The notes under the pieces were generated by a model that was not told the DNA's origin, searched no databases, and was given only the letters and a program-made list of their open reading frames with translations. A stretch of DNA of 63,264 nucleotides, the filler included, from Porpidia crustulata (lineage: Eukaryota), in the NCBI GenBank assembly GCA_964255105.1. It is 5 parts of 5 records of this genome, joined end to end, with 100 filler letters (N's around TTAATTAATTAA, not from the genome) between each part and the next. Parts side by side here need not be neighbours in the genome. Positions count along the whole stretch, not along the records: positions 50,700 to 63,264 come from CAXUWE010000513.1; 4 more parts are not named here. The stretch is one strand, 5' to 3'. Below, piece by piece: positions 12,581-63,264 of the stretch; positions within the stretch are counted from its first letter, which is position 1, and every line of letters starts with the position of its first letter. Position numbers and translations under genes: made by a program.

Positions 12581-12680
12581 NNNNNNNNNNNNNNNNNNNN
12601 NNNNNNNNNNNNNNNNNNNNNNNNTTAATTAATTAANNNNNNNNNNNNNNNNNNNNNNNNNNNNNNNNNNNNNNNNNNNN
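12581..12680. other. artificial contig spacer
   Basis: N44-TTAATTAATTAA-N44, giving stops in all six frames. Confidence 0.99.
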
Positions 12681-15967: not shown

Positions 15968-16002
15968 GGTGTTGTGCTAAGACCTCCATTAACACTTGGC
16001 TT

Positions 16003-16069
16003 TTCTTGCCGAGCGTGCTATTGGGAGCTAGTGATAGAGCAGTTCGACCAGTGGCATGCTCGGCAAGGA
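16003..16069 (+). other. long inverted repeat / RNA hairpin
   Basis: cttgccgagcgtgctattgg (16005-16024) pairs with ccagtggcatgctcggcaag (16048-16067); all non-Watson-Crick positions are G-U on the + strand. Confidence 0.7.
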
Positions 16070-16419
16070 CTGAGTTTTGTTATCTGATGGGTTCTTTGTA
16101 AATAGGTATCGTAGTTAGATAGTAGTGTATATTTACTCTGTACAAGATTACGAGTAGCGAGAGAAACATTGGATTATTTGTACTCCGAATATAGATAGTA
16201 GATGACTGACAAATCAAAGTCTTGGTGAGGCGTATGCGGAGGACGTTCCTCGCTAAGGAGAGAACTCTCTAGTCAGGCACGGATTCCGTTTGCAAGCTGC
16301 ATGTCCAATTGAGATGTTCCCAGCTTCAGATTCCAGGCACCTGAGTCAACCACATCACCGCAGCCCTTCACCCGTTGTATCTCATACACACTATCGGCAC
16401 GTGGAAAAAACTTATTGAC

Positions 16420-17048
16420 ATGTGGGCGCCGTCTTCAAAAACCGTTGTATCCCACCCATATCCCATCAATGCCTCCGGGCCGCTGTTCTCACCCTCCCTC
16501 ATTTCCCCCGAGGTTGTATCCGCCCTTCCAACAAATTATACAATTCGACCCCTCCAACGCTCCGACTATCAAGCAGGCGTCCTCGATGTGCTCCGTGTGC
16601 TGACGAATGTCGGCGACATCACAGAAGAGGCGTGGAATGAGCGCTTTCACTGGATGGCCAAGAAGGAGGATGAGTATTACATATTGGTGGTATGTAATGG
16701 GGACGGTAAGGTCGTGGGGACTGGGGGGGTGGTTGTAGAGAGAAAATTGTGCGCATACTTGTTACCGCCGTAAAATAGTTGTCAGAGCTAAATATGTATA
16801 GCATCCATAATCTTGGTCTCGTCGGTCACATTGAAGATATCGCCGTTGCAAAAGACCAACAAGGGAAACACCTTGGTCTTCATATCATAAAGGCATTGGA
16901 TCATGTGGCAGAAAAAGTCGGGTGTTATAAGACGATCCTCGACTGCTCTGAGCCAAACGAGGGTTTCTACGTCAAATGCGGCTATAAGCGAGCTGGAGTT
17001 CAGATGGGACATTATTTCGGCTCAGCCTCGTCGAAGGGTAGCCTTTGA
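16420..17048 (+). CDS. GNA1: glucosamine-6-phosphate N-acetyltransferase
   Basis: Exon 1 has YTIRPLQRSDY...DVLRVLT..G. Intron 16749-16801 joins ERKF|IHNLGLVGHIEDIAV...QQGKHLG...GCYKTILDC...FYVKCG. Start codon tentative. Confidence 0.93.
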
Positions 17049-18160
17049 GGATTGCAAGTTACGTGGAAATGGATGACCGATTAGAGGATACTTCCACATA
17101 GACTACATAATGAACATGACAATAAATCCATCCATGTATATTGTACGGCTGATAGCGTGAGTCCTTTATGATTACTTACCTACCTATACGAAAATTTCTT
17201 ACTGCATCCGAATCTACTTTGCATTACCATTAGTCTTGTTCACTATCTCCACAATGCACTTGCCGCTAATAACGACTCCATCCGGCAAACTTGGCCATAA
17301 CTCCAGAAAGGGCATTTGTACTCTATCCCTACTCATTCCTGAGGTGAGCTGAAGTTAAGAAGGTAACCATGAATTCTGGAGCAAAGTCGGCATCGAAGAA
17401 ACTTGAAATTTAGAGCTCGGGATTATTGAAGCATACTTTAAATTCGAGATCTAGCCCTCCCAAAGCCTTTCAGGATGGACCAGGCACGTGAGAAGAAATC
17501 GTAGAAGGAAGCCGTCTGATCCTATAATTGCAGGCTATAATCTGTATGCTGTTAGCGGAGGAGTTGTTAACAGTGAGAAATAAGTACTGTCTTGGCTTTA
17601 AGTTGTGAGACACTAAGAATGGCTAATTGCAGATTGCAGTCGCCGATGAGATCAACAACCAAATCAATATTTCTTTGATAGAATTGAAACTCGTACGTAG
17701 AAAGCCCACCAGCCATTTTTCGGAGCAGATTTCATGGTAGAACAGGCAAAGTGCTGAGAGATGACCACCGAGACTTGAAGTTGAGACAGGACTGAGCTTG
17801 AAGATGGAACTGAACGATAAGATCAAAGCATCATCAATTGACAGACATGCAATTAGTTTCCTAGATCATGGCTAGTAGATCTTGAGACGGATAATTTTCT
17901 GTGTAAGCATCCACAGTTCAAGGTATCCTCCACTGCACTGTGGACAGGATGCATCTAGCGAGACATCCAGACGGAGGTTGGCAGAGAATTAGGTAGTTTT
18001 CGCGCATTTGCCGCGTGGATGACGCCAATACGCGTCAACACTGGTGCATTGGCCTATCAGCTTGTCACAATCCCAATTACGACGTAGTCAGACGGAGCAA
18101 ACTTGGCTTCCTAGAGCGATAAGTCACTGCTTCACTTGATCTCCACTTGCCTCGACTGTA

Positions 18161-25256: not shown

Positions 25257-25356
25257 NNNNNNNNNNNNNNNNNNNNNNNNNNNNNNNNNNNNNNNNNNNN
25301 TTAATTAATTAANNNNNNNNNNNNNNNNNNNNNNNNNNNNNNNNNNNNNNNNNNNN
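25257..25356. other. artificial contig spacer
   Basis: N44-TTAATTAATTAA-N44. Confidence 0.99.
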
Positions 25357-37931: not shown

Positions 37932-38031
37932 NNNNNNNNNNNNNNNNNNNNNNNNNNNNNNNNNNNNNNNNNNNNTTAATTAATTAANNNNNNNNNNNNN
38001 NNNNNNNNNNNNNNNNNNNNNNNNNNNNNNN
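37932..38031. other. artificial contig spacer
   Basis: N44-TTAATTAATTAA-N44. Confidence 0.99.
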
Positions 38032-42604: not shown

Positions 42605-42903
42605 GCAGCGTGTTGCAGCCTTGAAGGTCATCCCTTCAACACTCAGATGATCCCGTCGCAAAGGATTCAGCCGGCACATTATTAAATTCATAGAGAGCGG
42701 ATCTCAGCCACATAGAAAATCATAATCGCCTACTCTAAACTCATCTACAAGCAATTGTACTACTAGTATCGAGAGTGCATGAGTACGCTATATAGATAGA
42801 CGAATCTGGTTCAGCCAGGATCGTAAGCTTGCCCTCAATATTTATCTGCTCCGGCTCACACGATTTGCTAATTTCAGATAAAGTACTAGCTCAAGACTTT
42901 CCT

Positions 42904-45900
42904 ATGCCATTCCCACAGTCACCGCTTTCTACGTTACTGGTCCCTCAACCAACCGCTGATCAAACCTTAGTCAATAGTCCAGCATGCAGTCCCAAGATCC
43001 AATTCAAGAGGAATTCCACCGCTTCTGAGATATTGGCTGCGTTTTCTCCAAAATCTCAAGCGAAGAAAGATCATCAAACCTGGGTCACTCCACCGGAATT
43101 CGCAGTCACCATGACCGACAAACGAGGTTTGCGCTACAAGCCGCGAGTGTCCTATGAGATCTCCGATGACTCTGACGACGTTGAGACTTCCTCAACTGTC
43201 GATTCAACATTTTCATCGCCAGAAAAGCCTCGTCGAGCTCGGAATGTTGAATATGTGGATCTCGAAGACGAGATAGAGGAGATTGAGCCAGCAAAAACTC
43301 CACCGCCACGAATTTCGACCGCAGGTCATTCATTACGACAGCATTCCGATATGCATTTGTCTATGAGGGCTCAAGAGAACGGCGACAAACCAAGAATTGT
43401 CAAGAGACGAAGAGTTTCTCATTCAAATAAGAAGAGGTCTAGAAATGTACTTGAAACTCAGTTTCCCGCTCCTATGAAGACTGTGCGCAATGAGATAAGG
43501 GATCAAATTGCTACAAAGACCGCTATAAAAAGAGCCAATTTCTTCGTCGCTAAGAAAGAATTCTTCCTGCCACTTCTGCCAGAAGGGAATCACATCCAAC
43601 GACTCGCGGATCAGCAGGTCCAGCAGGAAGACTTGAGTGTTCCATATGAAGCTCTTAACCATCAGCCAAAGGGGGTCACGGCGACCATGAAACCTTACCA
43701 ACTCTCAGGTCTATCTTTTCTCGTATATCTGTACAACAACGGCTTATCAGGCATATTGGGCGATGAGATGGGTCTAGGCAAAACTCTCCAGACGTTGTCA
43801 CTCCTTCAATATCTGAAAGAAAACAAGAAGCTGTCAGGTTCGAAAAGCGAGAACCGTCCTTCACTTGTCGTTTGTCCTCTCAGCGTGCTTAGCTCGTGGA
43901 TCTCTGAGGCTCGAAGGTGGACGCCAGGTTTGAAGGTCCTAAGATTTCATGGCCCAGTCCATGAGCGGAATCGATTGAAGAAAGTAGCAACTGGTGAAGA
44001 AGACGTGTATGGCAACACGACCAAGCAAGCACGTAAAAAAAAGAATGATCGGCGAACTGCTACAGGTAAAACGATCATTGATCTGGATACTGATTTGGAT
44101 GACGCACCTGATGAAATAGGCGTTGATCTCGTAGTGACCACTTATGAAGGCTATCAGGCCGAACAAAGCTGGTTCAAGCGAGCTTTTGTCTGGAGCTACG
44201 TCGTTTTGGACGAAGGGCACAAAATCAAGAACGATCTCAGCAATATTTCTAGATCACTTCATGGGCTCGGAGCTGAGTATCGTTTGATTCTCACTGGTAC
44301 TCCGTTGCAGAATAATCTAGTAGAGTTGTGGGCACTACTGCGCTGGCTCTACCCTGAGATCTTTACGGAGAAATCAGCAGAGCTTTTCAGGACTGCCTTC
44401 GATTTGACTCGTGGCAAAGTCAGCACTAACGTTATGGACGACTCCCGTCACTTACTTGAACTTATCATGCTGCGAAGGATGAAAAACAGCCCTGGCGTCG
44501 ATCTCAACCTGCCACCAAAAACCGAAGTATTACTTTTTGTGCCCCTTACGCCTATGCAGCGCTTTTGGTACACTCGACTGCTTACTAGAGCTGATCAAGG
44601 TCTCCTAGAAGAGCTATTTCAGGGTGCACAGCAGAAAGAGTCGGTCGTACTGCAGCAAGAGAGCCAGATCAAGAAAGACTGGGAGGACAAGGATATCGAC
44701 GAACTGGAGAACTTGGAGACAGAGGGCACAGGTGGTGACTGGGAAGAAAGTAAAGAGATTATGCGACAAGCTCTCGCACACGAACAACAGGACGAGAGCA
44801 AGAAGTCCGCATGGAGAAAGCTAATGAATCTTCTGATGCAACTTAGAAAATGCTGTAACCATCCTTATCTGCTGCCACATGCCGAACCTGATCCATATTA
44901 CATCGGCGATCACATCATCCGTGCATCGGCCAAATTCATCGTACTCGACAAGATCATCGACGAGCTTGTGCTCAAACAAAAAAAGAAGGTCCTGATCTTT
45001 TCTGGTTTCACTCGCATGCTTGATTGTTGTGAAGACTTTTTGTTTCTCCGAGGTGGAAATGGAGATCAGTTCAAATATGCTAGACTAGATGGAGGTACCA
45101 GTCGCGCGAGGCGGAACCTAGGAATAAGAATGTTTAATCAAGAAAATTCGGAATGTCGGGTGATGCTGATCTCGACAAGGGCTGGTGGATTAGGAATCAA
45201 CCTTGCAACTGCATCTGATGTGATCATGCTTGATCAGGATTGGAATCCCCAGATCATGCTGCAGGCAGAAGCGCGGGCCCACCGTATTGGGCAGACCAAG
45301 CCAGTAACTGTTTACAAACTTTGCACTCAAGGCACAGTAGAGGAGCAAATGATGGGCCGAATTCAGAAGAAGCTCTATTTGTCTGTCAAGGTCACAGAGT
45401 CAATGCGAAACGTGAACACAGCGTCCACACCAATGGGAACGAACAAAGGCCCTGGAGGTCGAATCATCGAGGCCACTGATGATGACATGCCTCAAATGGA
45501 TACAAATCAGCTGATGTCTTTAGTCCGTCGAGGCGCGCAAGCACTCGCTCATCCTGAGCTTGACGTAAACGAAATGCTTGGCTGGGATTGGCCCACTATG
45601 TTGGAGAAATGCAAAGACAAACCAGCTGACATCCACGTATCAGAGCAGACTAAGACTGATGCCAAGGTGAAAGAAGAAGACGAAAAAGCATGGTTATCGC
45701 AAATGGAGCAGGTGGAATCGAGAGTTTTCCAGGGCAGACGATACACGAAAGAGAAAGAGCTTGGGAACTACGGCAACATCTCTCAGGAGTGGGCTAGAGA
45801 AGAAAGGAGGAAAGGTAAAAATACCACCGTAATGGTGGATGGCTATGCGGTGAGCAAAGAGAGTATGTCTTGCGCAGATTGGGAGGCCGTTCCTACGATG

Positions 45901-46669
45901 GCCGGTAAAGATCCACGTCTTGCAGAGCCGAAGCGGGAGAAAAAGGCGGCTGTCTTGAACCAGGAGGTATTTGGCTTGTACAATCTTTCACCATTGCGCG
46001 CCATTAGCTGACGATCTGTAGCACTGCCAGGTATGTTGGGATGGTGGAGACCTTGTCCTCTGTTCTGGCTGCCCTCGTTCCTACCACTACAAGTGTCTTG
46101 ACAAAGATGCTAGAACTCGTTCCCGCGGTACAATGAACTTCAATTGCACTCAGCACCATTGCTTCGACTGTCTTCAGAAGACGTCGGATGCTGGAGGCAT
46201 GATCTATCGGTGTCGTTGGTGTGAGCGAGGCTACTGCGAAGATTGCCTTGATTGGGAGAAGACTGACCTACTGGGCGAGAACTTGAAAGAGTTCGAGCTC
46301 CTTGGGTTTCCGTCGGTTTCGCAAGCTTTCTACATACGATGCCCAATCTGCACGGATCATCACGTTGAGGACGAGGGAGCATTGGAATTCTGTGAAAACC
46401 GAGCCACTGAAATCGACTTGCAATACAAGGATTTGTTAGACGAGCAGGCTCTAGTTGCAGCCGCAGCAGAAGAAGCCAAAAAGCCTGCTGGGCCATTGAG
46501 CCGAGCTGAATCGCTTACTGATGCGACAACTCTGGACGACTCCGGCGTCTGCACTCCCCAATTCGCAAGCAACGCGGCTATCACCACCTCCACTTCACGA
46601 AAGCGCAAGGCGGCGCCAGATTCCTTTAAGCCTACACCTTCAAAGCGCTCAAACAGAGTCACGATTTAG
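42904..46669 (+). CDS. SNF2-family chromatin-remodelling ATPase with C-terminal PHD and Cys/His-rich zinc fingers
   Basis: ILGDEMGLGKT, DEGH, TGTPLQNN, QLRKCCNHPYL, STRAGGLGINL and QAEARAHRIGQ. Intron 45967-46021, then CQVCWDGGDLVLCSGCPRSYHYKC and CTQHHCFDC...CRWC...CEDC. Confidence 0.9.
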
Positions 46670-47373: not shown

Positions 47374-49441
47374 ATGGCACCTTTTGTTGCGCTATACATT
47401 TCTCGGTCAGACGGCAAATTAGAGGGCACATCAGCAAAGACGAACAAAAAAGAGAGGAATGAGCCTACTGCGGAACAATTAGATGACACACCAGACAGCA
47501 GAGGAATTTCCGATTTCTATAAAAAGCTCGAGATTGGTGATGCCAAAGAGGTCGATTGGAGGCGGAAATTGGGAGGCATGCTCATGAAGGAGATAGGAGG
47601 AAAGGAGCATTCAGGTGAGTCTCACGTGAATCTGTCTTTGAGATCCGTAGCTCATTACCCTAGGCCAGAACTACATTCTTGCAGCTTTGCCAGAAAATTA
47701 TCGGCTGTACGAACACGTGAAGTTCACCACTTCAGAGATTACTGGCGAGTTACTTAAACCATTGAAAAATCATGCGAAGGGTCCTAACGATCGTCAAGAT
47801 GCCTATCTGTACGGTCATCCCCAAGGCCGCAAAAAGCGGTACAGGAGCCCAGGGGACTTTTTCCCTCATCTATTATGGCTTGCCACAGACGAAAGTGGCG
47901 ACCCAGACAACTGCTCCTGTAAGATCTGTGCGCCAGATGATCTTCAAATCTTCGATGCGCCAGGGAAAGTCAAGATCGAGCCCGTGAAGGAAGAAGACCC
48001 TACACCAAAGAGGGAGAGCTCCCCAGCCAGGACTTCGACGTTTAACTCAAATCCTGTAGTCATAGTTCCGAAGCGCCAGATGCCAGTTGAAAATATTCAG
48101 AAATCAGTAAACAAGCCCGTTCCCTCTCCGTCTCCCGCTCTCACCCCAGCGCCTCGTATGGCGACCTCGTCCGTAGCCACACCAAGTCCGCTAGCAGCGG
48201 CCCGATCTTATGAGCAGGACCAAGATGCCCATTACAGCAAGTACTTGTTCCGGCCAGGGGAACTTGTTTGGTTCAATAGAGGCAACGCCTGGGGTTTGTC
48301 GATCATTGTCAAGAGAACACTGTTCAAAGATCAGCGTCAAATGGACCGCCCGAAATATCTTGTGCAGCCACTTTCTCACCCTTTTGACCATCCACCATCG
48401 AAAGTCATCCTTCAGGAAGATCTTTTGCGACCATGGCTGGCTTGGAGTGCCCCCTCCCCAACACACCAGTCTCTCGGTGCCGCAGGCCTGACTTATAACA
48501 CCATTGACTGGAAGGCTGTCATAGGCGGTCGTTATGGTAATGGAGACGCGGAAGTAGACGGCAGTATATTTGCAGCCAAAGCGATCGATGACAGCTTCAC
48601 ACTCATCGAGCCCTTGAGCAACAATACCGCTACGACTGTCACAACTGGTGAAAGATTTTACAATGGCATCTATCTGGGCGGTGAGAAGGTATGGGTTTCA
48701 GAGCCGATAAGGCTCCGGCTTGGTAATGGACAAGATATCATGATAGTGCATCACATTGTCGAGAGACTGAAACCTGGATCTACGAACGCAGCATCCGCAA
48801 TGATACAATTCGTCGGCGACGTCTACAGATTCACCACCGTAAATTACACCCCTGGCTTCGAAGCCCCTGATTCTCGCCATCTTCCCAGCCGCTTCAAGCA
48901 AGATCTCGATTGCCGCAACAGAGCCACCATCTCAATAAAGCGCACGGTATCGTACTGGAAACTTGTACAGGCCGCAGCTCGCCTCGGCATTGCCGAAGTC
49001 AAGGGGCGCTGGTACGAATCAAGCGTCTTACTTCCCATCCTCCGCGGCGCCCAAGATTTCACCAACGACTTACGCTGCGGCGAGATCAACGACGTCGGCC
49101 AATGGATGAACGGACGCGGCGACTCGTCCGGAGTCAGTGTTCCCAAGCCAGGAACGAGGCATTTCGATCGACTCGAGGCTTTTGGAAAAGCAGTACCGCA
49201 AGGCACACGCATCAGCAAAGGCTTGGATGGACCTAAAGAGGAAAACATCTTCCCGGTGGAGCCGGCACCACCGGCTCCCCCGCAGGTTGCACTGACTGAA
49301 GAGCAGAGGCAGCCGATACACCAGGGGATACAGCAAGGCGTTAGCGATGGGGATATTGCGGAGTTTATGGATCTGGATAGGTTGGAAGATAGGTATGTGC
49401 AACAGTATGTGGAGAATGGGGGTCTATTCTTCGAGCGATGA
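47374..49441 (+). CDS. clr2: Clr2-like transcriptional silencing protein (cryptic loci regulator 2)
   Basis: Intron 47615-47663. LPENYRLYEH, DAYLYGHP..KRYRSPGDFFPHLLWL..CSCKIC, FRPGELVWF, YNGIYLGGEKVW and KGRWYE motifs. Confidence 0.82.
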
Positions 49442-50599: not shown

Positions 50600-50699
50600 N
50601 NNNNNNNNNNNNNNNNNNNNNNNNNNNNNNNNNNNNNNNNNNNTTAATTAATTAANNNNNNNNNNNNNNNNNNNNNNNNNNNNNNNNNNNNNNNNNNNN
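50600..50699. other. artificial contig spacer
   Basis: N44-TTAATTAATTAA-N44. Confidence 0.99.
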
Positions 50700-50754
50700 G
50701 GGTAGGGCGCTGGCCAACTAGAGGGTTTGGCCAACTAGGGGGTAGATTACGTTA
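50700..50754 (-). mobile_element. probable terminal inverted repeat of a Fot1/pogo-type (Tc1/mariner superfamily) DNA transposon with TA target site
   Basis: Minus strand reads TA|ACGTAATCTACCCCCTAGTTGGCCAAACCCTCTAGTTGGCCAGCGCCC: an ACGTAATC start, two internal direct repeats and a flanking TA, located at a contig break. Confidence 0.55.
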
Positions 50755-51460
50755 CTAAATAGCTATTTATGACTAAGCAAAGCACTCAGCTCCACATCGC
50801 TAGTTAACAATTCTGCAATTGATTAATCAGCGAGACTAAGTCGAAAGTCAGTGGACTCAGCCCTACCACCAACCAGGACATCTTCAGCCCCACCAAAACG
50901 TCGAATTTTGCTAATTTCATGAAGTCATCATCATGAATCCGATTTAATAGGTTTACCAACAAATTCAATTAGCTGATCACACCGCCATGGCATTTCCTGA
51001 ATGCGCGCCCGTATTTCGTTCATAGATAGGTTGTGGGGTGAGAACTGAAAGAATTAAATAAACTAAATGGTTTGGTGAGGCCTCGGTAAGGCTGACTTCA
51101 CTGACATTTGCCACCCCCCGATGTTTGACGCAAGACAGATGACGAAGTTATTACATAAGAAGTCATCATGTGATCTTTGAATATCTTTCATATCATCAGC
51201 CTATCAAGGCCCCTGACGTTCATGCGTATCTCATCAAATTCATTGGCTGCGAGTATGCACCTCTAAAGGCCACTGAGATTGAACAAAGACGCTAGTTCGC
51301 CAGTGAACTTCACCACATTTAAACCCCCACGGCGCCGAATCGCGCATGACTTCGCGATCGTGGTGATCGGATAAGAAAAATCAAAATTCATAAGCTTCAT
51401 CACTCGCTTCTCTCGACGAAACGAAAATGCATTGCTTCCTTGGCTTGCTCTGATTTTCCA

Positions 51461-52450
51461 TCATACTGACTTTGGTGGGATTTTGTTGTGCTTCCGGAAC
51501 ATCCCGTACATCACACACGCGTCAGAAACTTGAAGCCCGCCAGCGAAGAGAATACGGCGAGAAGCTGCGGATCCTTGCACGTAGGCGTTAGAGCCGGGGT
51601 CAAGAACCGCCGGCGGACGAAAGCGCAAAGGCCGCTTGGACCACCGTCTTGATGCTCACAGGTGCTTTCGGGTACGCATACTCGAACCCGGCCGGGTTCG
51701 AGTATGTTTCGCCGATACACTTTAGGATGAAGACCAGGATTTGGATCAGGACGTGCAACTGGTTCGAGATCTCGCTGTTGAGGGAAGCTGCGCATCGACG
51801 TGGTCTGTTGAAGCAAGGTCCTATGCTGTAAATTAATTTCTGGATATCGACGACATATGCCATTGCCATTGCTTCTACAATGAAGCCGACCGTCATTCGA
51901 TTGACGGGAGCAAACGGCAGCTTCATTCGGTGCAGAGCTGGGTTTACAAGATGTTGACATATCGACAAGAAGATTACTGCCGCCACGCCATTGAAGGTCG
52001 GAAGCATATCGTTCGGAACTCCGTGGCTGTTCATATTTGTCACTTGCGACATCAGATTCGTGGACATCTAAGTCTGGCAGAGTCAGTATACGACAAACGC
52101 AATTCTAGCGATAAGTGAGTATTGCAAATTGATGGAATTGTTGAACAGGCAGGGTGACTGTCGTAGTATTGCTACTGAATTACGTACTGAACTAGAAGGT
52201 TGAGTGGCCAGGTGGTCACATAAGACAGGGGTAGGGCAAAGCCCTATCACTAGATCCAATCCATCCATTCACACCGACTAGATAATGAGGAGGTTAGGCC
52301 TTCGTCCTACCGCACTTTCCAACAGGAATGAAGCAAACTTACAAAGCGCGGCAGGCTTTTAGATCGCACCTGAGTTTCTTCACGAACGAAGCGGTCCAAC
52401 TCACTCGTGTACCGTATTTTTCGAGAATGTTTTCGGGTTTGGTGGCGCTC
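51461..52450 (-). pseudogene. decayed POT/PTR2-family oligopeptide transporter (C-terminal half)
   Basis: Fragments KPE...WTASFVKKLRCDLKACRA, NMNSHGVPND, RMTVGF, IYSIGPC and GFEYAYPKAPVSIKT. Frameshift near 51600 (ALTPTCKDPQLL continues in another frame) and another near 51510; no N-terminal half seen. Confidence 0.8.
51677..51706. repeat. perfect 30-bp palindrome
   Basis: catactcgaacccgg|ccgggttcgagtatg. Confidence 0.95.
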
Positions 52451-53967
52451 GTCCGCCCACCACTCCTTGTTTACGCTGAGAGGCTGTGTTATCGTCGAAC
52501 TGGTGTGAATCATCTCATTCGCTGTCGAGTATGCACCTCAGCAGAGACTGTCTTGAGAGAAGGCACTAGATCGTCAGCAGAAATCCTGCAGCGTCGGGAG
52601 CGCAATAGCCGCAGGAGTTCGTGGGCCTGGCTTCAACTCACACTTTTTCACATTTCTCCGTTTCATGCGAGGTTTGTTACTTCGCCACGAGTTTGTTGGT
52701 CCATATATCGTCATCGATACGTGTGATGCTGTTTGTCAAATCTCGCCGTAAGTTTACGCTTCAATGTGCCGTAACACCGAACTTACGCGTCAGCGTCCAG
52801 GTCTTCCTAATAATTTGAGCAAAGACTTTAGCCAGAGACTTAGGTCCTTCGGCGTGAACTGCTTGACTAGGCGTAGACTGAGGGCTGGTGATGAGTTTGA
52901 GCACCGACGCAATCAAGAGGAAAGCCTTACTCTGAAAGGCGTCGAAGCTCATTGGTCATCCAATGACCGCTTCCACAGCTGCTTGACCCAGATTTCGACG
53001 CTAGTTGGCCCCAGCACCACACAGGATGGGGGTTCGAAGCGTGGGGAGCAGCACCCATATTTGAAGATGGAGGGGGTAGATCCCATGTACATAGGTAGTA
53101 AAGGTAGCAATATGACCTTGAGCAGCCGCAGTGCTTTAATTGACATTGGCTGCGTTCCGTTGCCGAGCCTATGATGCCCGCCCTATATCTAGCGGCTTGC
53201 GAAATGCACTCGAGTCTATGCTTCAACACAGGTGCATACATGCAAAAAGCCTCCCCCTATATGTGTCATCCTCACACTGAATAACTCTTATTAGCCGCAC
53301 AAGATACACCTCCCCAGGGACTGGAATTAAGCAAGACGCGGGGCGACCAGGGGTTTTCGACAGGGTTACAGAAGTGTGTATTTTTTAAGTGCTACTAAGA
53401 GAAGCTCTTCGTAGAAACTTGCGGTTGTAGCGACTCCTAATAATTGGCAAGCGTATCGTTGTCTCGCAAGGCTAACGCTTATACTCGGTCTTACCCCTCA
53501 ATGGGTCAAAACCCTCAACGAAACTAGTGAGTATAGCCCTAAACCTAGGCTAGCTGACGAGCCATGATCCAATACCTATCCAATATGATTAAAGCCCAAC
53601 CACCTTGGAAATTGAGGAGTGAGTGAATGGCCACTCTCTGAGAAGTATCTTTTCAGTAATGGAATCTTCTGGGCGAATCTAAGCCCTTACGTGTCATGTA
53701 ATCCGTGCAGACGTACTCACATTCATGTTGGGTCGATGATGCTGTAGTGCATTGGAGTCCTTCTAAGCGCTGAACCCCTTCTCATAGCTTCTTTGAGAAA
53801 TGTTATTGAAGTCGTTGATGGTGTACGGCAAGTGCTCAACGTATTTTAGACACCTGTGTCTGATCTAAAATTGGACATAAGGATGCGTTTGGATTACTAT
53901 TGGCATATGGTTTCCTATGGTGATTTCACAAGGAAACGTTGAGGATAGTTGTGTCTGATGCAGTTGA

Positions 53968-56926
53968 TCACCCAACCAGCTCTTTCAGATATTGAAGTCG
54001 ACCATACGTTAAATCCTCCTTTCTGATTGCGCCACCGCTCAAAGTCAGGTCCGCGAGCTCTTGTTTGCGCCGTTGCACTTTCTGGACATTTTGCTCCCAA
54101 GATCCTCTCATAACGTATCGTACGGTCTTGACTTCCTGTGTCTGTCCCAGTCGATGGATTCGATCAAGCGCTTGGGATTCGCTCATGGGATTCCATTGGG
54201 GTTCCATAATGTACGCATGGGAAGCGACTGTCAGATCGAGGCCAATGCCTCCACACGAAATGGTGGCAAGCAGGACTTTGATGTCGGGGTGAGTTCTGAA
54301 GACGCGGAGCACACCCGCTCGGCCTGTTGTGGTCAATGTCCCGTCAAGGCGCACACATCGTATGGACCTCTCGCAAAGTTGAGGTTGGAGTATATCGAAG
54401 GTCCTTGTCCAAGAAGAGAATACAACACTAGAGGTCGTCTTAGTCAGTGGGGTGGTTTCGTTTGTACACGAGGTACCAACCTTTTGATATTGTCTGGAGT
54501 ATCGCAGAGATCTTGAAGCACTCTTCGAATCTTGGTTGATAGATGAAATTGGGTTGTCAAAGGGAAATTGCTATGAAGTTTCAAGATCTCCGACTGTGAG
54601 ATCATGCTGTTTTGCAGATCCGGGGCAACAGCCTTTGACTTCCGTGGCAAATGATTGCATACCCCGAAAGTCTTAGAACGATTTCCAACGTTCCCAATAC
54701 AGGAAGAACACCAAATTTCGAGCGAGTCACTGATGAAGGGTTCATCCTCGTGCTCTGAGTCAGTTTCACTACTTAATGCAGAAGTAAGATCTTGTCGGCA
54801 TTCCGCGTTGGAGCATTTGGCAAGGCCAACATACTCAAGTTGATCAAAATGGGTCTGAGCTTCCTGTACAGTCCACAGCGGCCTTTTGATAGAAGACTCG
54901 TCCAACTTCGGCACGACGTTGTTATTCGGTACTCCATGGGTACAAATCAGGCGAAGTTCATTAACCAATTTCAACGTATTGAGAAAAACAGTTCCGCTAC
55001 CGTCTCGATTTGCAGAATCAATTTGGTGCAGGGTGCTCATTTGGACTTGTCGGTAGTGTGTCCTTTCTGTCTCGTCAAAATCAAGCTCAACTACCTCATC
55101 TTGCCTGACAGGTAGCTCAATTGTTGTCTTTGGACGTCGAAGAGACAGACAATTTACCGTAGTCTTCATCTTTATGAATGATGTTGGATCAGAACTAGCT
55201 TTCCATCCTTGGATGAACTGAGTTTTGAAAACTTCCAAATTGTCGAACGGAGCGCACTGAAGAAATTTGAACAGACTGAACAGGTCCATAAGGCGATTTT
55301 GTATCGGCGTCCCGGTCACTGCCCATCTCATATCTGCTCTGAGGCCACAGACTGATCGCGCAAATGATTTGGACGGTTCGCGGATAATGTGTGCTAACTC
55401 ATTGATCCTATCAAGGTCGTGTTCCTTCCATAAATCAGAGAACTACGTACCTTCATCCAAGACCACTCTACCCCATACCATGGCGTGTAAGGTTAGGGGT
55501 GCCTCAAAATTCTCTTCTAGGCTTTTTTTCCAGTCCAGTCGAGCGACAGAATATGTTGTGATAACCAGGGCATAATTCTCAAGCTCTTTCAAATACTTTG
55601 TCCTGTCTTTACCATAATAAACACAATACTTTAAAGCATTCGGGGACTGTAGGTGTCTACGGCTTTTAGTACTCAGGGCAATTGGCCGGTATCCTTTTGC
55701 GGGACTTACTTCTGTAATTCATCTTTCCAGGTCTGGATGACTATTATGTCTTAGTGCTTTGAGAATGGCGAGAAACATTGCTTGCGGCCTTACGGGTTTT
55801 GGGAACGACCAGCAGAGTTGTAGATTGCGATGCACCTTTGCAGTCGCCCTGCGCTTCACTATGACAATCTGATGCAATGAGAGAAATGATGCTTAGAGAT
55901 TTACCTAAACCAGGTGCGTCTATTAAAAGACCCCCTCGAAATTGCTGCGGGGGTCTGGTCTGCTTCTGACCTGCAATAGTATTGAGGTATAAAGTGCGTC
56001 CATAAGCATCTTTTTGTGTCGCCCATATGTCGCTACCTCGTCCGTCAATTGCCCAGCCGCGCTCTCTTTGTATCATAAATGTAAGAGCCTGCATCTGGTG
56101 ATTATACAAAATGGTACGAAGTGTCTGTGGGGTTTTTGTGCCCACTAGTGTTCCTTGGCCTACCGCATCAGCTAGTAGATCGATAGGATTCAAGGGTATC
56201 TTCAATGTATGTCCGGCATCATTGCGTAAAGCATCATCCAAATTGTAGGTGTATGGATATTTGTTTTCCTGCGGAGATAGACAGTGCGGATTTCGGTATT
56301 GTACGTTCCTATCGCAGTTTCGAGGGTGCTGTAAGAAGAGCTTGCACTTGGCCACAAATAGACCAACAGGTTCGAAGAGGGATTGAGCTCCATACAAAAT
56401 CGCGCACAGTACTATTCCTAAGTCCAAGTTGTTCGATTTTGTGCGACTTGTTCTAGTCTTCTTCCTCGCGACCAGATCCAGCTTGTCAGCAAATAGCTGA
56501 ATTGAAACTTTCTTCTGTAGTACTTCCAGTATTTTTCTGCTGTCCCGGCCAAGACAACCAAAAGAGATTTTCGACATCGCGTCTATGAGGGTGCACGAAT
56601 CTTCTGAGACGTTGAGAGGGATCGGTATCTCGCAGATAGAATAGCTCGCCGACATTGTAAAGTCAAGGTCAACGATCTGGACAATGGGTCTAGTCAGGCT
56701 ATGGCTATTTTGTCTGCAATCAAACCCATACCAAATATTGCTTGAATACTCTGTATCTGGTAGTTTACAGTTTGGAGCGTGAGACTGGATTGGAAACAGG
56801 GTTCGAAGGAAAAGTGACCTAACGAACCATTCCAAAGCAGTATAGATCATTGTCACTTGCTATCATCTTCTCCGACAATTGTTTCACCATACGATCATCA
56901 TTTTCTGTGAGTGCGTGCTTTGTCAT
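53968..56926 (-). CDS. SNF2-family ATPase of RAD5/RAD16-like architecture (non-canonical paralogue), ~863 aa, 6 exons
   Basis: Exons 56926-56828, 56676-55794, 55740-55710, 55656-55451, 55393-54481 and 54427-53968 splice in frame (2592 nt). Motifs GGLLIDAPGLGKS, TLLVVP, VITTY, VVLDEAH, WAVTGTPIQN, KSVVFSSW, RLDG, GIGLDLT and EPQWNP..QALDRIHRLGQ. Start tentative. Confidence 0.88.
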
Positions 56927-57774
56927 TATAAGAATCGTCTTGATTTAGTGCTAACACCGATGATGGGGAAGGAAGACGAAGAAATGGAGAAATCTGCAGC
57001 GCGTGTCTATCAACGGACAAGCTCTATTAAAGTAAATCTGTCACACAGGGCGATGTGCAGTAAAGAAAATGGTGAAAGGAGATGGTAAAACAGTGTCAAA
57101 TTTGGCCAATTGAGACCCACCATATCTGCAGCTTGCTTGACCGATGGCCGGCCAGATTTCGTCTGATATAGTCAAGATTGGATTACCCTTTATCTTCTGC
57201 GTATGCTGTTAATTCAGGAGTTTGCCTTCTTCCTCATCCGCCAACCACGAGCACCAATAAGCCGATCAGTCAGCAACACAGCCGAATATGCAGCCAATCA
57301 TGCGACCTGTCAGCCTTGCACTGCCAGTCTGAGGCTATGAGGTCGTATGGCAGCGACAGGACCAAGTCACCAGGCAGTCACACTCAGGCCTACCTTTTTA
57401 TCCACTTACCATTCCAAGGCTTCTCTATCAGAGCGGAGCAGAGGCAACCCATGCACCTTCTTACGTGTGGAGCCCGCCAGCTCACCACAGTACTCTACAC
57501 GTAGACCTATTCAGCCCGAGCTTTCAAATCGAACACCAAGTTCGCTGTTAAATAGAGGCTTTAGTATCATAAGATCGTGTCTAGTAAAATGTAATTCGCG
57601 AATACCCCACCAAATGCTCAAACTCGGTCCATGGATGTGCGGAGTGCAACCAGTACGGCATCTTCAGTCGCAACAGGTACTTCGTGATGCTTGGTGACTT
57701 ATTGCGAACGGCAAATCTCTCAAGTCTTCTTAATAGTTCTCACCACTTAGGCAAGGCCATTGTGATTCAACATT

Positions 57775-60700
57775 ATGGCAACAGGACAGGCGATAGTTAT
57801 GAAGTCATTGGATCAACTAAAATCGACAATCACTCCCGCAGACGCCCAGGTATTCCAGGATACAAGATTGGAGCATGTATGGGAAGCAGCTCGCGAGATA
57901 GAGAGAGAACAAGGTACCCGTTGGGATCTTAGATTTATGCGTAGAATCGAGCCGCTTCTTCGTTCTCTAGAAACCTATGCACCCGTAATTGAAGTTTTCT
58001 GCCAGGGCTTCTCCCTGATGGCCTTTGTTTGGGTATCACTGAGTTTTCTATCTACTGGCTGTCAATGTGGCTAACAAGTCGATCAGGGACCTATAAAGCT
58101 GATGTTACTTGTATTTCTCCCCACTCCGCTCACACGTCAGGCGCAACTAACAAACCCTGGCTTTAGCTAGCAAGACAGTATTCCGACATCATGGAAAAAG
58201 TACTGCAAGCATTCAATGAGATTGCTGGGTACTTGCCGAAGCTAGACCGACTGAAAGCAACTTTTGGAGCCGTGGCTGACTTCGAACAATCTCTGGGGCT
58301 CATCTACAGCGATATCATCGAATTCCATCGGCGAGCGTATAAATTCTTCCGCCGGAAAGCCTGGCATATATGGTTTGCTTTTGACTGGGGTCTCTTTGAA
58401 CGTCGCTTCAAATCAATCCTCGGAAAGCTACATTCTCATTGTGATCTTCTAGATAGAGAAGCAGCCGCCATACACTTTTCCGAGATGAAGAATATGCGAG
58501 ACAAGCGTGAACTCGATGAAGAAGTCTTTGAGCAACACCGAAGTCGCCAATTGATCCGGGACGTATTTTTCTGGCTTTCAGGAGACGAAGATGATAGCCA
58601 AGAGGAGTGTCTCCACCGGATTTCCGACAATCGCCAGCCTGGGACATGTGATTGGGTTCTCGAGGAACCCCTTGTACGATCATGGATCGAAGATGACAAG
58701 GGAGAGTCGGTGATCTGGATGACTGGTATTCCAGGAGCAGGGAAAAGTTTTCTCTGTTCTTTGATAATCCAAAATCTGGAGACTCATCGGGATCTCACTG
58801 AGGGCTACTACTTTTGTAGTCACTCTAATGGAGATACCTGCGCTACGATACTTCGCATACTCGCGGTACAAATACTAAGGTCTCACCTCGACGTGGCCGA
58901 ACTCGTTCATCAGGCGTACCTCCAGAAGGGTTCCAGTCGCTCATATCCAGCCATGAAAAGGATGCTCAAAGAGATCTTATCTACTGTGCCAAACACGCGT
59001 ATAGTCTTGGATGGCCTTGACGAGGGTGATCAAAAAATGCAACAGGAAACTCTCAAGACTTTGCTGGAACTCCAGAAACATGCTGGGCACAATTGCAAAT
59101 TGTTAATATCTAGCCGGGAAGAACCTTCAATAGGAAAAACCATTCCCTACAGGATTCATCTCAAACTGGATGATAAAACAACTCAAGGTCTGAATATCTT
59201 CATCCAACACAAAGTCGGAGAGTTAAAAATCCACTTTCCTGAGTTAGATACTACTCTTCTGACTCGCGTGAATGATCGATTGCAGGCCCATGCGAAAGGA
59301 ATGTTCCTATGGGTGCGATTAGTTCATGATATGCTGCTGCAGCAATCGTCGGAATTTGAAATCGAGCAGGCAATCAAGCGACTACCAGATGGGCTAGACG
59401 AGGCGTATTGGCGCATATTATCACGATTCCTTGAACTAGGACCGGACTTGAAGAATAGAGTCTTCAAGATTTTACTCTGGGTGAGCGCGGTGGAACGCTC
59501 GGTCTCAATCCATGAAATTGCTGATGGAATAGCCTTGAATTCCAATCAATTGACTCTGAGTAAGAAAACGAAATGCATGGACGGCCAGAGGGATATTCTC
59601 GATATATGTGCACCTCTTTTAGAGATATCGAAGAATCGAGAAGTAAACCTAGTACATTTCTCCGCCAAAGAATACCTACTCCATGACCAGAGTGGTCCTT
59701 TCGTTGATATAGCTCAAGCGCATTTCAACATCGCATACTCGTGTATTGCTAATCTGACGGCTACATTAGTCGTCGTACCTCGACATCGTAATGGCGTAAG
59801 TGATTTTGATCTCGAGACTCAGATAGTGCAGGGAGACTTTGGGCTTCAGCCGTATGGTCACCAATTCTGGGCTGAGCACGTACTAGCTTATTTGGAAAAG
59901 TCTTCGGGGCTGGCTCCCCAGACGGAGAGTTTACTAGTTGCTTTAGAAAAGTTTTCTAAGGTTTGCAAAGCTCAACCACCCGGATGCATTGAACCTGCCC
60001 ATAGACTCAATTCTGGACCTAACTCTAGAGGACTCGATAAGCTTAGAGCGAATCCGTTGCTCTTCAACTTTATTTCAGGCTGGCTGCGATTCAAGTCAAA
60101 AGCACAAGATTCTGAATCTACTATTGATGACTTTCATGCTCAAGAAGATTGGCGATTGCAAGCAGATGAAACGCACCTCAGTCTCATTGATTTCAAGATC
60201 CGAGAGATTTCAGAACGGTTACTTGCAATGACAGCCTCTTCGCTTCCTCCGCACATATCTATGGCTGATCATCAGGCTTTCGTTAACCGCACCAATTTCG
60301 GCTGTAGGTTTTTCGACTGTACCCGTTACTTTGATTCCTTAGGAGACCGTGATGCTCACGAACATACTCATTCAAGATCATTCCCGTGTCTTCAGTGTGA
60401 TTGGGGATTCAAGTCGCGTAAGGATTTGGAAAAACACACTCGAAAGTACCACATGTTTGCAGAGGATTTTGAGATACCAGATTGTTTGCCTGACGCCACC
60501 ATAGATTCGAAGAGCACAACTGGTACTTCTTTTGGGAGGAACTTTGATAGCGCTGATAGAAAAAGTTGCTGGAACAAACATGGTCGTGCGGTTCTACAAA
60601 AAGGCTTCTGGCATGTCCTGGCCAAATTCGCGTCAGGGCCAACGCCAGTGAGCCGCGCTTCGAACAAAGTGAGCTCTATCCATCTAAATCATACCAATCA

Positions 60701-62417
60701 AGAAATATTTTTGGGAGCCTTTTCTGGCTCCCATGGAGAGATTTCAGCAGTAAACGTGGCCTCTATCCGCGCCAAGGTCGAAAACAAGCAGTATGAGACC
60801 TTTGCCGATTTCAAGGACGATATTCAAGAATTATCCAAGAACTTGACTACAACGAGAGAATTTGAAGCTTGGGAAGATATTGCTGGAATTTGTGATCAAG
60901 AGTTCGAAGATGCCACTTCGAATTTCCCTGCGTTCGCGAACTTTGATCTTTGTAAATCAAGACTTGATCTTGACATGACGAATCCCAAAAGCATTACGAA
61001 TCTACCGCTAAGTTCTTTAGGGCAAACCAATGATAACGAGGCCGCTTCCTCTATTGGTAAAAGGAAGCCCTACTGGTCCAAGACAGAGGTAGAGCAGTTT
61101 CCTGAGCTCTTGGATCAATGTGGACGAGATTTCATCACAATAGCCGGTCGCCTGAAAACCAAAACCATCAACGACATCGATCAATATTTGAAGGCGAAAC
61201 CAGAGCTCTTAAGGCTTGCCGAAGAAGCAGACGCAAGGTTGCAACAGATTTTTGAAGCTATACTGCCTATTCAAATTGAGAATGACGATGAGCCTCATAA
61301 GCTGCCGTTGATCGAGTCCGAAGATCCAAGACCGGCAGCGCTTACTTACTCCGCCGAGGCGTTGGAGGCCATGCTTCTCTCTCGAAAGCGTCAGCAAGAG
61401 GCGTCGGCCGATAGAGAAGCTCAATCCAACATGCATACGGGCAACCGTATTTCTCACGTCACAAACGAAGACAGTAAGAAACTCGCTATACCGAAAAGTA
61501 CTAGACGGCGTCCGCGACCAAGAGCAGCATGCCCAAAGTGCAATATACACAAAAATGGACTCCGCGACGAATACGCATTAGAGAGACACTTGAATCGTTT
61601 GCACAACCCAACTCGTCGCGTCTGGGTTTGTGATGACGTCTCAATGGATAAGAAGTTCCTAGCTAAATGCAAACCATGTTCAGCTGGTAAGCGATACAAA
61701 TCCAGACATAACGGGAGCAAACATCTTCGTGATTTCCACTTCGGTGCCAATGCATCGCATAGTCTACTGACAAGGTGGATGCGCGAAATGGAGGAACCCA
61801 ATTCCAATTTCATGGCTGACGATATTACGACTCCGTCTATATTTCCGCAAAAAGCCAAGTACGAGGAGCAGAATGGAATACCACAACTACGGGATAGACC
61901 TAATTCATCGAATAGCTCGGATCTCTTGCCTTCAATGCTACTGACGTCGCCAAGTAAGATCAGTCCTTCCAGCCAAAGTGCATCGCATTCAGTGACCCCT
62001 GGTTCACGTGACAGCGCGGACGACCAGGGTAACGAAGAACCTTCCGAGCCCATTGATGGAGAAGCACCCGGTTTGATTAAACGGACTCTACTTCTTCCAA
62101 ATGTCTCGTTTGATCACCTTTTGGCCGGTCCAGCAACGAGCTCTCAATATGATACCGGGCCAAAGCATCGAACGAACCTCGCTTTAGTCAAACCAGAGCA
62201 GGTTCGAAGACTTCCTCATCTAGACCCTTTCCCCAGACTTGCCTATCAGGACCAGGTCGAGGGTCTCCACAACATTCTTGACCATGAGGTCGAGGGTAGC
62301 AAGCGCTACGAAGGCGCCTTGGAGGACTTGACAGATGTTTCGCGAACACTACTACAAGGTCTCATGCAGTGGCGTCAGCAATCTACCTTGGCTCCGACCA
62401 TTCCTTTCTCGATCTAG
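57775..62417 (+). CDS. NACHT/STAND (fungal NLR-like) protein with C-terminal C2H2, bromodomain-like, SANT and zinc-finger domains, ~1510 aa
   Basis: Exons 57775-58032, 58087-58110 and 58167-62417 splice in frame. N-terminal helical domain (RRIEPLL..VIEVFC..FVWGPIKL), GTCDW, Walker A GIPGAGKS (58725-58748), Walker B IVLDGLDE (59001-59024), ISSR, GMFLWVRL, LPDGLDEAY and LVHFSAKEYL. Confidence 0.9.
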
Positions 62418-63264
62418 ATTTTCGGAGTTGTCTACATTTATCCATCTGCGACTTGAGTCGCCGTTCACTGTTTCGAGCCACCATCAGAATGAGAGCATCG
62501 TTGACTCAGTACTTCACCACCTGGAACTCTCCTAGTATCTGTTACTCTACCTTAAATGTTTGGTAAATGGATATTTCACGATGCAGATACTCATGTTTAA
62601 TGGAATACCAGGTGTGGATTCGGCATTGATGTTGTTACCGCCAGGAGGCTATCCAGCGGTTAAAAAGGAATAGCTCTGGCAAAAACATACCAGCACCCTC
62701 AGCCCAATGTGGGGGAGATTTCTAACTTCCCTAATTGTACCATAGTAACGCGAAATTTCTAGATTACGTGACTAGATACCTAAAGACAAAGGGTTGTAGG
62801 AATCTTTCCCGGCCAGGGCGAAGAACTTTGATTACAAAGCCAGGCCAAGGACTTTACCGCTTCCGTGCGTTCTAATTGGTGCTGGTAAACAGGCTCCGCC
62901 AGCTGCTCGTGGTGAAAATGACGCTAGTTGGCCAGGCCAGACGGCTAAGCCTATTTTAGAGGGATAATGCACTCCCCCGAAAGTTATGCGCATGTTGACC
63001 TCCTTTTATGCAGGCTAATTGGTTAATTTCTTAATCTTTGAATACCTTTACACTTTTGGACCGGAATTCTCGTTACTGTGCCCGGACATCTCAGATCCGG
63101 TCTGCATATTACCTGGTAGGAGGCGTTGTGACTCATCTAATAACTTCCGCGCCGATAAATTGAACGCTTTACTCTTTTAGATAATAATTACATTAAAGCA
63201 TTATACTAAAATGTAGGGAAAGTATAACGGTACACCCCCTTTGTTTACACGTACACCCCCCTCC

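Follow-up and report, generated by a model that had tools for sequence, protein, structure and literature searches.

Introduction

In the fungus Podospora, nwd2 encodes a NACHT-type STAND protein and lies beside het-S, whose product is thought to be its target; Nwd2 signals by a short amyloid motif to this pore-forming HeLo protein. The vertebrate NACHT proteins CIITA and NLRC5 are nuclear and serve as scaffolds for transcription and chromatin factors. In Schizosaccharomyces pombe, rhp7 and rhp16, which correspond to Rad7 and Rad16 of Saccharomyces cerevisiae, reportedly lie close together and are divergently transcribed. Fungal proteins resembling NOD-like receptors (NLRs) number in the thousands, and a partner or an output is known for very few of them. 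Plant NLR pairs such as RRS1/RPS4 and RGA4/RGA5 are arranged in inverted tandem and often share a promoter, according to a survey of Sordariales NLRs (PMC12258605). In Sordariales, the survey found the head-to-head arrangement in 13 of 225 two-NLR clusters, so that such NLR-NLR pairs are rare there, and it lists 34 non-canonical NLRs with C-terminal C2H2 fingers; the words 'SNF2' and 'helicase' do not occur in its main text (PMC12258605). Here we analyse a stretch of 63,264 nucleotides, filler included, from the genome of Porpidia crustulata (assembly GCA_964255105.1; hereafter the window), in which one contig, CAXUWE010000513.1, carries an SNF2-family ATPase gene and a NACHT gene in head-to-head orientation. 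We propose, with a probability of roughly 65%, that the two genes form a functionally coupled, old and vertically inherited pair that co-evolves in filamentous ascomycetes and has been held together by selection.

Results

The SNF2 and NACHT genes recur as a divergent pair

The locus consists of two genes and the region between their start codons:

53968 to 56926, minus strand: SNF2-family ATPase gene of the Rad5/16-like group, 899 residues, spliced model free of stops
56927 to 57774, no strand: shared intergenic region, 848 bp
57775 to 62417, plus strand: STAND/NACHT NTPase gene ('NLR-like'), 1510 residues, spliced model

The initial annotation had described two intact, spliceable genes transcribed divergently from starts at 56926 and 57775. 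This description holds: the starts are 848 bp apart, both genes are intact and spliceable, and the ATPase motifs are preserved in both. The intergenic region is presumed to be a bidirectional promoter.

To survey the surroundings of related genes, a profile of the NACHT protein was searched against a metagenome contig collection, the loci were retrieved with 10-kb flanks, and the spliced SNF2 model was then searched in these loci. The census yielded 76 metagenome loci. Thirty-two were informative, as they contained the NACHT N-terminus and at least 2.5 kb upstream; the others do not include the upstream sequence that is needed. An SNF2 homologue on the opposite strand was present in 31 of the 32 informative loci, the nearest SNF2 and NACHT matches being 0.95 to 1.8 kb apart and, in a single locus (L054), 3.6 kb apart. 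Two loci with shorter flanks (L013 and L044) hold the 5' part of an SNF2 gene at the contig edge. After the loci had been clustered at 85% nucleotide identity (over >1.5 kb), 17 informative lineages remained, and each of the 17 has the divergent SNF2 gene in at least one locus. Seven lineages are orthologue-grade and stem from lichen metagenomes; the other ten are distant, mostly from soil or peat metagenomes, with 27-37% NACHT identity that covers the N-terminal core only (no further than residue ~790). The presence of stop codons in tblastn matches was tried as an integrity test for the loci and proved uninformative, as the matches read through short introns.

The same arrangement was found among annotated proteins, where comparisons rest on the best 120 of 141, 267 and 281 matches, drawn from a scoring that covered part of the candidates. 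The two genes have adjacent locus tags in Villophora microphyllina (Q9218_001670/001671) and Dirinaria sp. (Q9191_004972/004973) and consecutive accessions in Pseudocyphellaria aurata (MCJ1463034/MCJ1463035) and Xylographa soralifera (MCJ1385511/MCJ1385512). Three further NACHT/SNF2 pairs lie on equal-sized contigs (P0042/P0293, P0040/P0297 and P0057/P0304). The recurrence of the SNF2-NACHT adjacency is not due to chance. The counts of loci and lineages, the four named genomes and, as described below, the separate clade without RING and HIRAN and the congruent trees also support the earlier proposal that the SNF2 protein is a dedicated partner, as opposed to one that is adjacent by chance or has a housekeeping role of the RAD5 type.

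Synteny of the flanks was analysed by all-against-all tblastx of 14 dereplicated loci, with flanks of 1.4-6.4 kb next to SNF2 and of 2.5-9.8 kb next to NACHT. There were 0 cross matches in the 91 locus pairs, both at E 1e-10 and at E 1e-4. Likewise, the flank of the pair in the window (50700-53900) and the 815 bp past the NACHT gene had no match in the loci; the sole match in this run was an SNF2 gene on another contig of the window. Thus, even among lichen fungi, gene order is conserved for SNF2 and NACHT only.

The partner SNF2 proteins form a separate clade

An SNF2 tree of 59 rows was calculated with FastTree, leaving out the SNF2 of L056. The 17 SNF2 proteins derived from the loci, that of the window and named relatives from Bisporella, Diaporthe, Xylaria and lichen fungi fell into one clade with a support of 99. 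RAD5, fungal TTF2-like proteins and a Fusarium clade all lie outside it, the SNF2 and RAD5 clades each having a support of at least 99, and the lichen RAD5 proteins P0189 and P0212 are placed in the RAD5 clade. The separate clade and the lack of HIRAN and RING rule out that the SNF2 protein is a RAD5 orthologue. As the tree holds no RAD16 or ULS1 sequence, that the protein is not an orthologue of these is indicated only indirectly, by the missing RING alone.

Among the matches listed, the SNF2 clade extends over Lecanoromycetes, Eurotiomycetes (Endocarpon, several Aspergillus), Leotiomycetes (Botrytis, Hymenoscyphus, Hyaloscypha, Cadophora), Sordariomycetes (Fusarium, Xylariales, Colletotrichum, Diaporthe) and Dothideomycetes. 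Some of the species listed have at least two SNF2 copies of this clade, e.g., Leptodontidium (P0267/P0274) and Annulohypoxylon (P0258/P0273).

The gene trees of the two partners were compared for 20 taxa; L056, L033 and L026 were left out, as one of the two genes was too fragmentary. The congruence that the initial annotation had called for was found: 14 of 17 splits were common to both trees, whereas 2000 label permutations gave 0.24 common splits on average and 3 at most, and the patristic distances were correlated with an r of 0.94. A complex prediction for residues 1-770 of the P. aurata NACHT protein and residues 1-225 of its SNF2 partner, which was made without alignments, scored 0.25 relative to a mark of 0.34.

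Features of the SNF2 gene and protein

The SNF2 gene is composed of six exons, and the following features were located, all on the minus strand:

56926-56828, 56784-55794, 55740-55710, 55656-55451, 55393-54481 and 54427-53968, minus strand: exons 1 to 6
54142 to 56109, minus strand: helicase core, by Pfam and motif location
55897-55911, minus strand: motif I, GLGKS
55389-55457, minus strand: motif II, DEAH, split by an intron
55296-55316, minus strand: motif III, TGTPIQN
54142-54174, minus strand: motif VI, QALDRIHRLGQ
56110 to 56676, minus strand: clade-specific N-terminal region, residues 70-258
56281-56334, minus strand: motif LQHPxxCDRNVxYxNPHC in the N-terminal region, conserved in the 28-member alignment
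56173-56190, minus strand: NPIDL in the N-terminal region
54636 to 54818, minus strand: Cys/His-rich insert in place of the RING of RAD5 and RAD16, with invariant cysteines in the clade alignments

All five introns are of the GT..AG type and 43-57 nt long. The model aligns end to end and over nearly its full length with database orthologues at 47-59% identity, and the end of exon 1, 'CFGM', also occurs in the clade consensus. Pfam SNF2-rel_dom (SNF2_N) and Helicase_C were matched on the exon pieces, and motifs I, II (DEAH), III and VI are invariant across 28 aligned clade members. The closest relative with a solved structure is Rad5 (6l8n, E 6e-56).

No Pfam family was matched on the first ~260 residues. 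The N-terminal motif has the clade form LQ[HD]PxxCxRNVxYxNPHC. When searched alone against 1.84 billion proteins, the N-terminal region matched 365 representatives with E<=1e-3, 59 of them with E<=1e-10, most of the matches being exon-sized fragments. Pfam RING families were found in 0 of the 28 clade members at E<=0.01, and the same was true for HIRAN (0 of 28, E<=0.01); the RAD5 matches in the protein search carry PF08797.

Several orthologues bear names that do not match their domains. P0122, P0123, P0124 and P0279, which come from several lichen fungi and in one case from Arachnomyces, are named 'alpha-1,6-mannosyltransferase' despite having only SNF2/helicase domains. P0261 of Colletotrichum asianum is named 'WD domain-containing protein'. 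These names are probably annotation transfer errors.

Domain structure of the NACHT protein

The NACHT gene has three exons, and its predicted product is composed of an N-terminal core followed by a series of small domains:

57775-58032 (86 codons), 58087-58110 (8-codon micro-exon) and 58167-62417 (1416 codons), plus strand: exons 1 to 3
57775 to 58484, plus strand: DUF7708, N-terminal all-helical domain, by Pfam in 18 of 21 orthologues
58641 to 59690, plus strand: NACHT NTPase of the NPHP3_N type, Pfam NPHP3_N at E 3e-33 plus NACHT
59466-59690, plus strand: winged-helix domain (GPIID_WHD) after the NACHT, by Pfam
60288 to 60455, plus strand: two C2H2-type zinc fingers, by invariant Cys/His pattern and a weak Pfam zf-C2H2 match
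60561 to 60950, plus strand: bromodomain-like four-helix bundle, by VIA-align and Pfam Bromodomain (8 of 21 orthologues, best E 2e-5)
61068 to 61187, plus strand: SANT/Myb-like domain, matched by Pfam Myb_DNA-binding in all 21 orthologues (best E 3e-8)
61515 to 61802, plus strand: DUF7896 zinc-finger-like domain, Pfam in 21 of 21 orthologues, invariant Cys/His

The N-terminus agrees with that of the annotated Lobaria immixta orthologue P0034. Across 21 orthologues, Pfam matched NPHP3_N in 21, DUF7896 in 21, Myb in 21, NACHT in 19, DUF7708 in 18, the winged helix in 10 and Bromodomain in 8. The Walker A (GIPGAGKS) and Walker B (LDGLDE) motifs are present, with G-x-G-K-S and D-G-x-D-E being invariant. 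An AlphaFold2 model of the DUF7708 region, made for its equivalent in L025, is all-helical and of low confidence (predicted local distance difference test, pLDDT, 59.5).

The C-terminal part was modelled with AlphaFold2 from residues 690-1210 of P0001, which is the large NACHT exon as a database protein. The model has well-folded islands at an overall pLDDT of 62.9, and DUF7896 is its best-folded part (pLDDT 87-96). A Foldseek search of this model against the PDB gave nothing at E<=0.001; for the finger region, the top rows were C2H2-DNA complexes, all weak and none at E<=0.001. In a wide VIA search, bromodomains filled nearly all of the 50 best rows, from Z 9.2 (root-mean-square deviation, rmsd, 2.9; 91 aligned) to Z 6.6, over model residues 102-231. 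Middling Z values of this kind are common for helical bundles, and the model pLDDT is 56-80 over this part; the 'bromodomain-like' reading is based on the VIA matches helped by the independent Pfam hits. By eye, the NACHT protein of the window has no YN motif after the 'DFKDD' helix, the acetyl-lysine-binding Asn is not evident, and the ZA-loop region is disordered in the model. The SANT2 domain of CoREST matched the tail at model residues 227-331 (VIA Z 7.0, rmsd 2.5, 64 aligned).

ANK, TPR and WD40 families were absent from the Pfam matches of the 21 orthologues, and no toxin or enzyme effector domain was found in the NACHT protein. Among the matches listed, the protein is 40-63% identical over its full length in lichen fungi and near-constant in size. 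The full-length conservation, the near-constant size and the absence of ANK, TPR and WD40 repeats indicate that it is not a typical repeat-bearing NLR; by its predicted domains it is a STAND NTPase with chromatin-type reader domains. The NACHT with its Walker A and B motifs is in line with the label 'NLR-like' of the initial annotation, whereas the repeat tail by which canonical NLRs are defined is absent. The predicted tail of C2H2, bromodomain-like, SANT/Myb and DUF7896 domains points to chromatin.

Past the conserved core, the tail varies by lineage, with a WW domain in L064 and a Myb domain in L027. The distant pair member L073 has eight very regular WD40 repeats (12935-14095) directly after the NACHT core, which may or may not be part of the same gene. 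Further downstream, L073 contains an open reading frame (ORF) of 836 residues (15463-17970) with a homeobox and a Tc5-transposase DNA-binding domain. As a lead only, neighbours of the NACHT core in the ESM Atlas include clusters from Ascomycota that bear the name 'C2H2-type domain-containing' and have NPHP3_N, WHD and DUF7708, and some neighbouring clusters carry a Goodbye domain.

Contig setting and neighbouring genes

The window is made up of five pieces of ~12.6 kb each in descending size, with joins at 12581-12680, 25257-25356, 37932-38031 and 50600-50699. Each join consists of two N runs of 44 with 12 bases in between. As the pieces are only joined by N spacers, gene neighbourhoods are not readable across the joins. 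The contig of the SNF2-NACHT pair comprises 50700-63264 (12,565 bp); the genes at 1-50599, housekeeping genes among them, sit on other contigs and are uninformative for the setting of the pair. A single further gene feature was located on the contig of the pair:

51603-52067, minus strand: POT/PTR2 peptide transporter fragment, limited to positions 209-369 of the 392 in the Pfam profile

No further parts of POT/PTR2 were detected in any frame of 50700-53900, and the fragment is probably a gene relic. A Pfam-type domain search in six frames of the flanks of the pair identified no transposon domain. The contig has no dispersed repeats of at least 25 bp, and its sole tandem repeat is a 17-bp unit x1.9 at 50711-50743, at the contig end. 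Earlier, the contig had been described as carrying a pseudogene, a transposon end and repeats. The POT/PTR2 fragment fits the pseudogene, whereas the transposon end was not recovered as a domain in any of the six frames and the repeats amount to the 17-bp unit. The 'accessory-looking context' is therefore not established; with a contig of only ~12.5 kb, an accessory setting is neither confirmed nor rejected.

Another contig of the window has an SNF2 ATPase ORF with a PHD-finger ORF directly behind it (42796-46666, plus strand), which we take to be Mit1-like. About 1 kb past these ORFs lies a Clr2 gene with Clr2_transil and Clr2 domains (47651-49441, plus strand), so that two SHREC-type silencing genes are neighbours there. 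The first contig contains an open frame of 1578 residues (4947-9683, minus strand) that matched no Pfam family at E<=0.001.

Discussion

The proposed pair joins two proteins with distinct predicted properties. The SNF2 member is, as judged from its sequence, a Rad5/16-like translocase with an N-terminal region of its own and without a detectable HIRAN or canonical RING. The NACHT member has the predicted order DUF7708, NACHT, winged helix and C2H2, to which lichen-forming fungi add the bromodomain-like bundle, SANT/Myb and DUF7896. The nuclear site of action guessed in the initial annotation fits the C2H2, bromodomain-like and SANT domains. We infer a nuclear location, a cooperation of the two products and the following order of action. 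Both genes would be driven from the shared promoter of ~0.85 kb, matching the amounts of the two products. The NACHT protein would be positioned on chromatin or DNA via its C-terminal reader domains, would function as a nucleotide-dependent switch or as an oligomeric scaffold, and would recruit or license the SNF2 motor. SNF2 would then translocate on DNA and remodel or clear the bound site. The purpose of the pair may be surveillance or defence, the handling of DNA damage, or gene regulation similar to that of nuclear NLR scaffolds.

Several observations weigh against a pair kept together by selection for a common function. For five of the nine named NACHT-bearing lichen species (Lobaria immixta, Sticta canariensis, Protoblastenia rupestris, Fulgogasparrea decipioides and Xylographa trunciseda), the SNF2 orthologue was not among the matches listed, which says little either way. 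The census was anchored on NACHT only and gives the rate of SNF2 per NACHT locus, not the converse. L021 and L016 share 92% identity, but in L021 the place of SNF2 is occupied by a block of at least 9.3 kb with 17-33% GC, and the homology to L016 breaks off at 9347; no ORF of at least 150 residues is present in L021:1-9346, and the block looks like an insertion or rearrangement and resembles repeat DNA degraded by repeat-induced point mutation. The relative L027, which lacks the N-terminal half of NACHT, is without an SNF2 gene within 10 kb; the SNF2 gene of L069 is located ~3.9 kb downstream on the same strand. The SNF2 of L056 (5158-6612) was recovered only in part, with 342 residues and the mid-helicase missing, and may be a decaying copy. 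In addition, congruence is expected for any two vertically inherited genes and so indicates long joint descent, not interaction, and the trees were calculated with FastTree only. Finally, an hhalign comparison of the SNF2 and NACHT family profiles identified no common domain (probability 0.2).

With regard to function, the pair could be an immune or surveillance module, in which NACHT senses non-self or altered self (invading DNA, transposons, viruses or chromatin-acting effectors) and SNF2 is the nuclear executor. A STAND architecture with a C-terminus that varies by lineage, from the WD40 repeats in L073 and the WW domain in L064 to the C2H2/bromodomain-like/SANT tail in lichen fungi, would be in line with such a role, although the WD40 run may belong to another gene. 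The presence of more than one clade SNF2 in listed species (Leptodontidium, Annulohypoxylon) points in the same direction. So do the SWI2/SNF2 helicase partner of bacterial NTP-dependent conflict systems (PMC7159879) and the occurrence of C2H2-bearing NLRs among the non-canonical NLRs of Sordariales (PMC12258605). However, the lichen-fungus NACHT proteins, with 40-63% identity over the full length and a near-constant size, are unlike fast-evolving recognition NLRs, none of the 21 orthologues has an ANK, TPR or WD40 family, and a toxin or enzyme effector domain was not found. An immune function is conceivable but on balance doubtful. Of the two-component nuclear defence module put forward in the initial annotation, the dedicated pair is supported, whereas no evidence of a defence role emerged.

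A broader version of this idea, which we regard as speculative, is that of an undescribed nuclear surveillance system of filamentous ascomycetes, in which a NACHT protein would recognise chromatin or DNA by exchangeable C-terminal modules (C2H2/bromodomain-like/SANT in lichen fungi, elsewhere WD40 or WW) and, once active, would turn on a dedicated SNF2. If this were true, the pair would be a eukaryotic counterpart of the bacterial conflict systems of the STAND-plus-helicase kind. It would also be the first pathway of the NLR type with a DNA motor, not cell death, as its output.

A genome-maintenance pair in the manner of Rad7-Rad16, in which the Rad5/16-like SNF2 and a non-catalytic NACHT partner find or process lesions in chromatin, appears unlikely. 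The membership of SNF2 in the Rad5/16-like group, with Rad5 as its best solved relative, and the Cys/His-rich insert retained at the RING position are consistent with such a role, and the chromatin-reader domains of the partner would fit work on nucleosomal DNA. However, none of the 28 clade members has a recognisable RING, which makes the E3-ligase side of Rad16/Rad5 function doubtful. The SNF2 clade is also apart from RAD5, and, unlike core repair genes, it occurs in listed species that are scattered over ascomycete classes and in part multi-copy.

That the genes are merely held together by an indivisible bidirectional promoter or another cis constraint, with products in unrelated processes, is quite improbable: the head-to-head layout and short intergenic region are indeed kept in almost all loci, but the linkage persists in lineages with 27-37% NACHT identity, in which all other neighbours are different, and the adjacency survives both the growth of the spacer in L054 (~3 kb, threefold longer) and the change of orientation in L069.

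Both protein families are known, as are partner genes adjacent to NLR genes; the conserved NACHT-SNF2 combination is undescribed as far as our searches reach. No description of it was found in the literature searched for NACHT with SNF2 in fungi, in agreement with the earlier statement that no described NLR-SNF2 pair was known in fungi, and no paper naming DUF7708 (PF24809) or DUF7896 (PF25438) was found. As the pair stayed linked through the diversification of ascomycetes while other neighbours changed, it provides a concrete, testable partner for one NACHT subfamily. It hints at a nuclear, chromatin-directed output, as opposed to the death effectors known to date, which are pore-forming or enzymatic. 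It also suggests a likely role for one Rad5/16-like SNF2 paralogue among the many in filamentous fungi that are unassigned. Should the role of the pair lie in repair or regulation and not in defence, NACHT switches would be at work in ordinary fungal chromatin biology.

The pair described here resembles several known systems in part. With CIITA and NLRC5 it shares the NACHT domain, beyond which the proteins are unrelated; these have LRR tails and no linked SNF2 gene. As in nwd2/het-S, a NACHT STAND gene adjoins the gene of its presumed partner, but an amyloid motif or HeLo domain was not seen in the present pair, and the partner is a predicted DNA translocase. RAD5/HLTF are similar to the SNF2 member in belonging to the Rad5/16-like group and in having an insert between the helicase lobes, and Rad5 is the closest solved structure; they differ by possessing HIRAN and RING and by forming a separate clade, and lichen fungi have RAD5 as well. 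Rad7-Rad16 and rhp7-rhp16 likewise combine a Rad5/16-like SNF2 ATPase with a dedicated non-catalytic partner. There, the partner Rad7 is an LRR protein and RAD16 has a C3HC4 RING between the helicase lobes, whereas in the present pair its place is taken by a NACHT STAND NTPase with predicted reader domains, and Pfam detects a RING in none of the 28 SNF2 clade members. In the plant sensor/helper pairs both genes encode NLRs, whereas here only one does and the SNF2 protein is without a nucleotide-binding domain of the NLR type. The Sordariales C2H2 NLRs are also NACHT proteins with C-terminal C2H2 fingers; in the accessible part of the survey, no partner gene is described for them and a bromodomain-like/SANT/DUF7896 tail is not mentioned (PMC12258605). 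The bacterial NTP-dependent conflict systems, which are prokaryotic operons with restriction-endonuclease-type effectors, can be likened to the pair by component type: they too join a regulatory NTPase to a SWI2/SNF2-clade helicase that acts on nucleic acid (PMC7159879).

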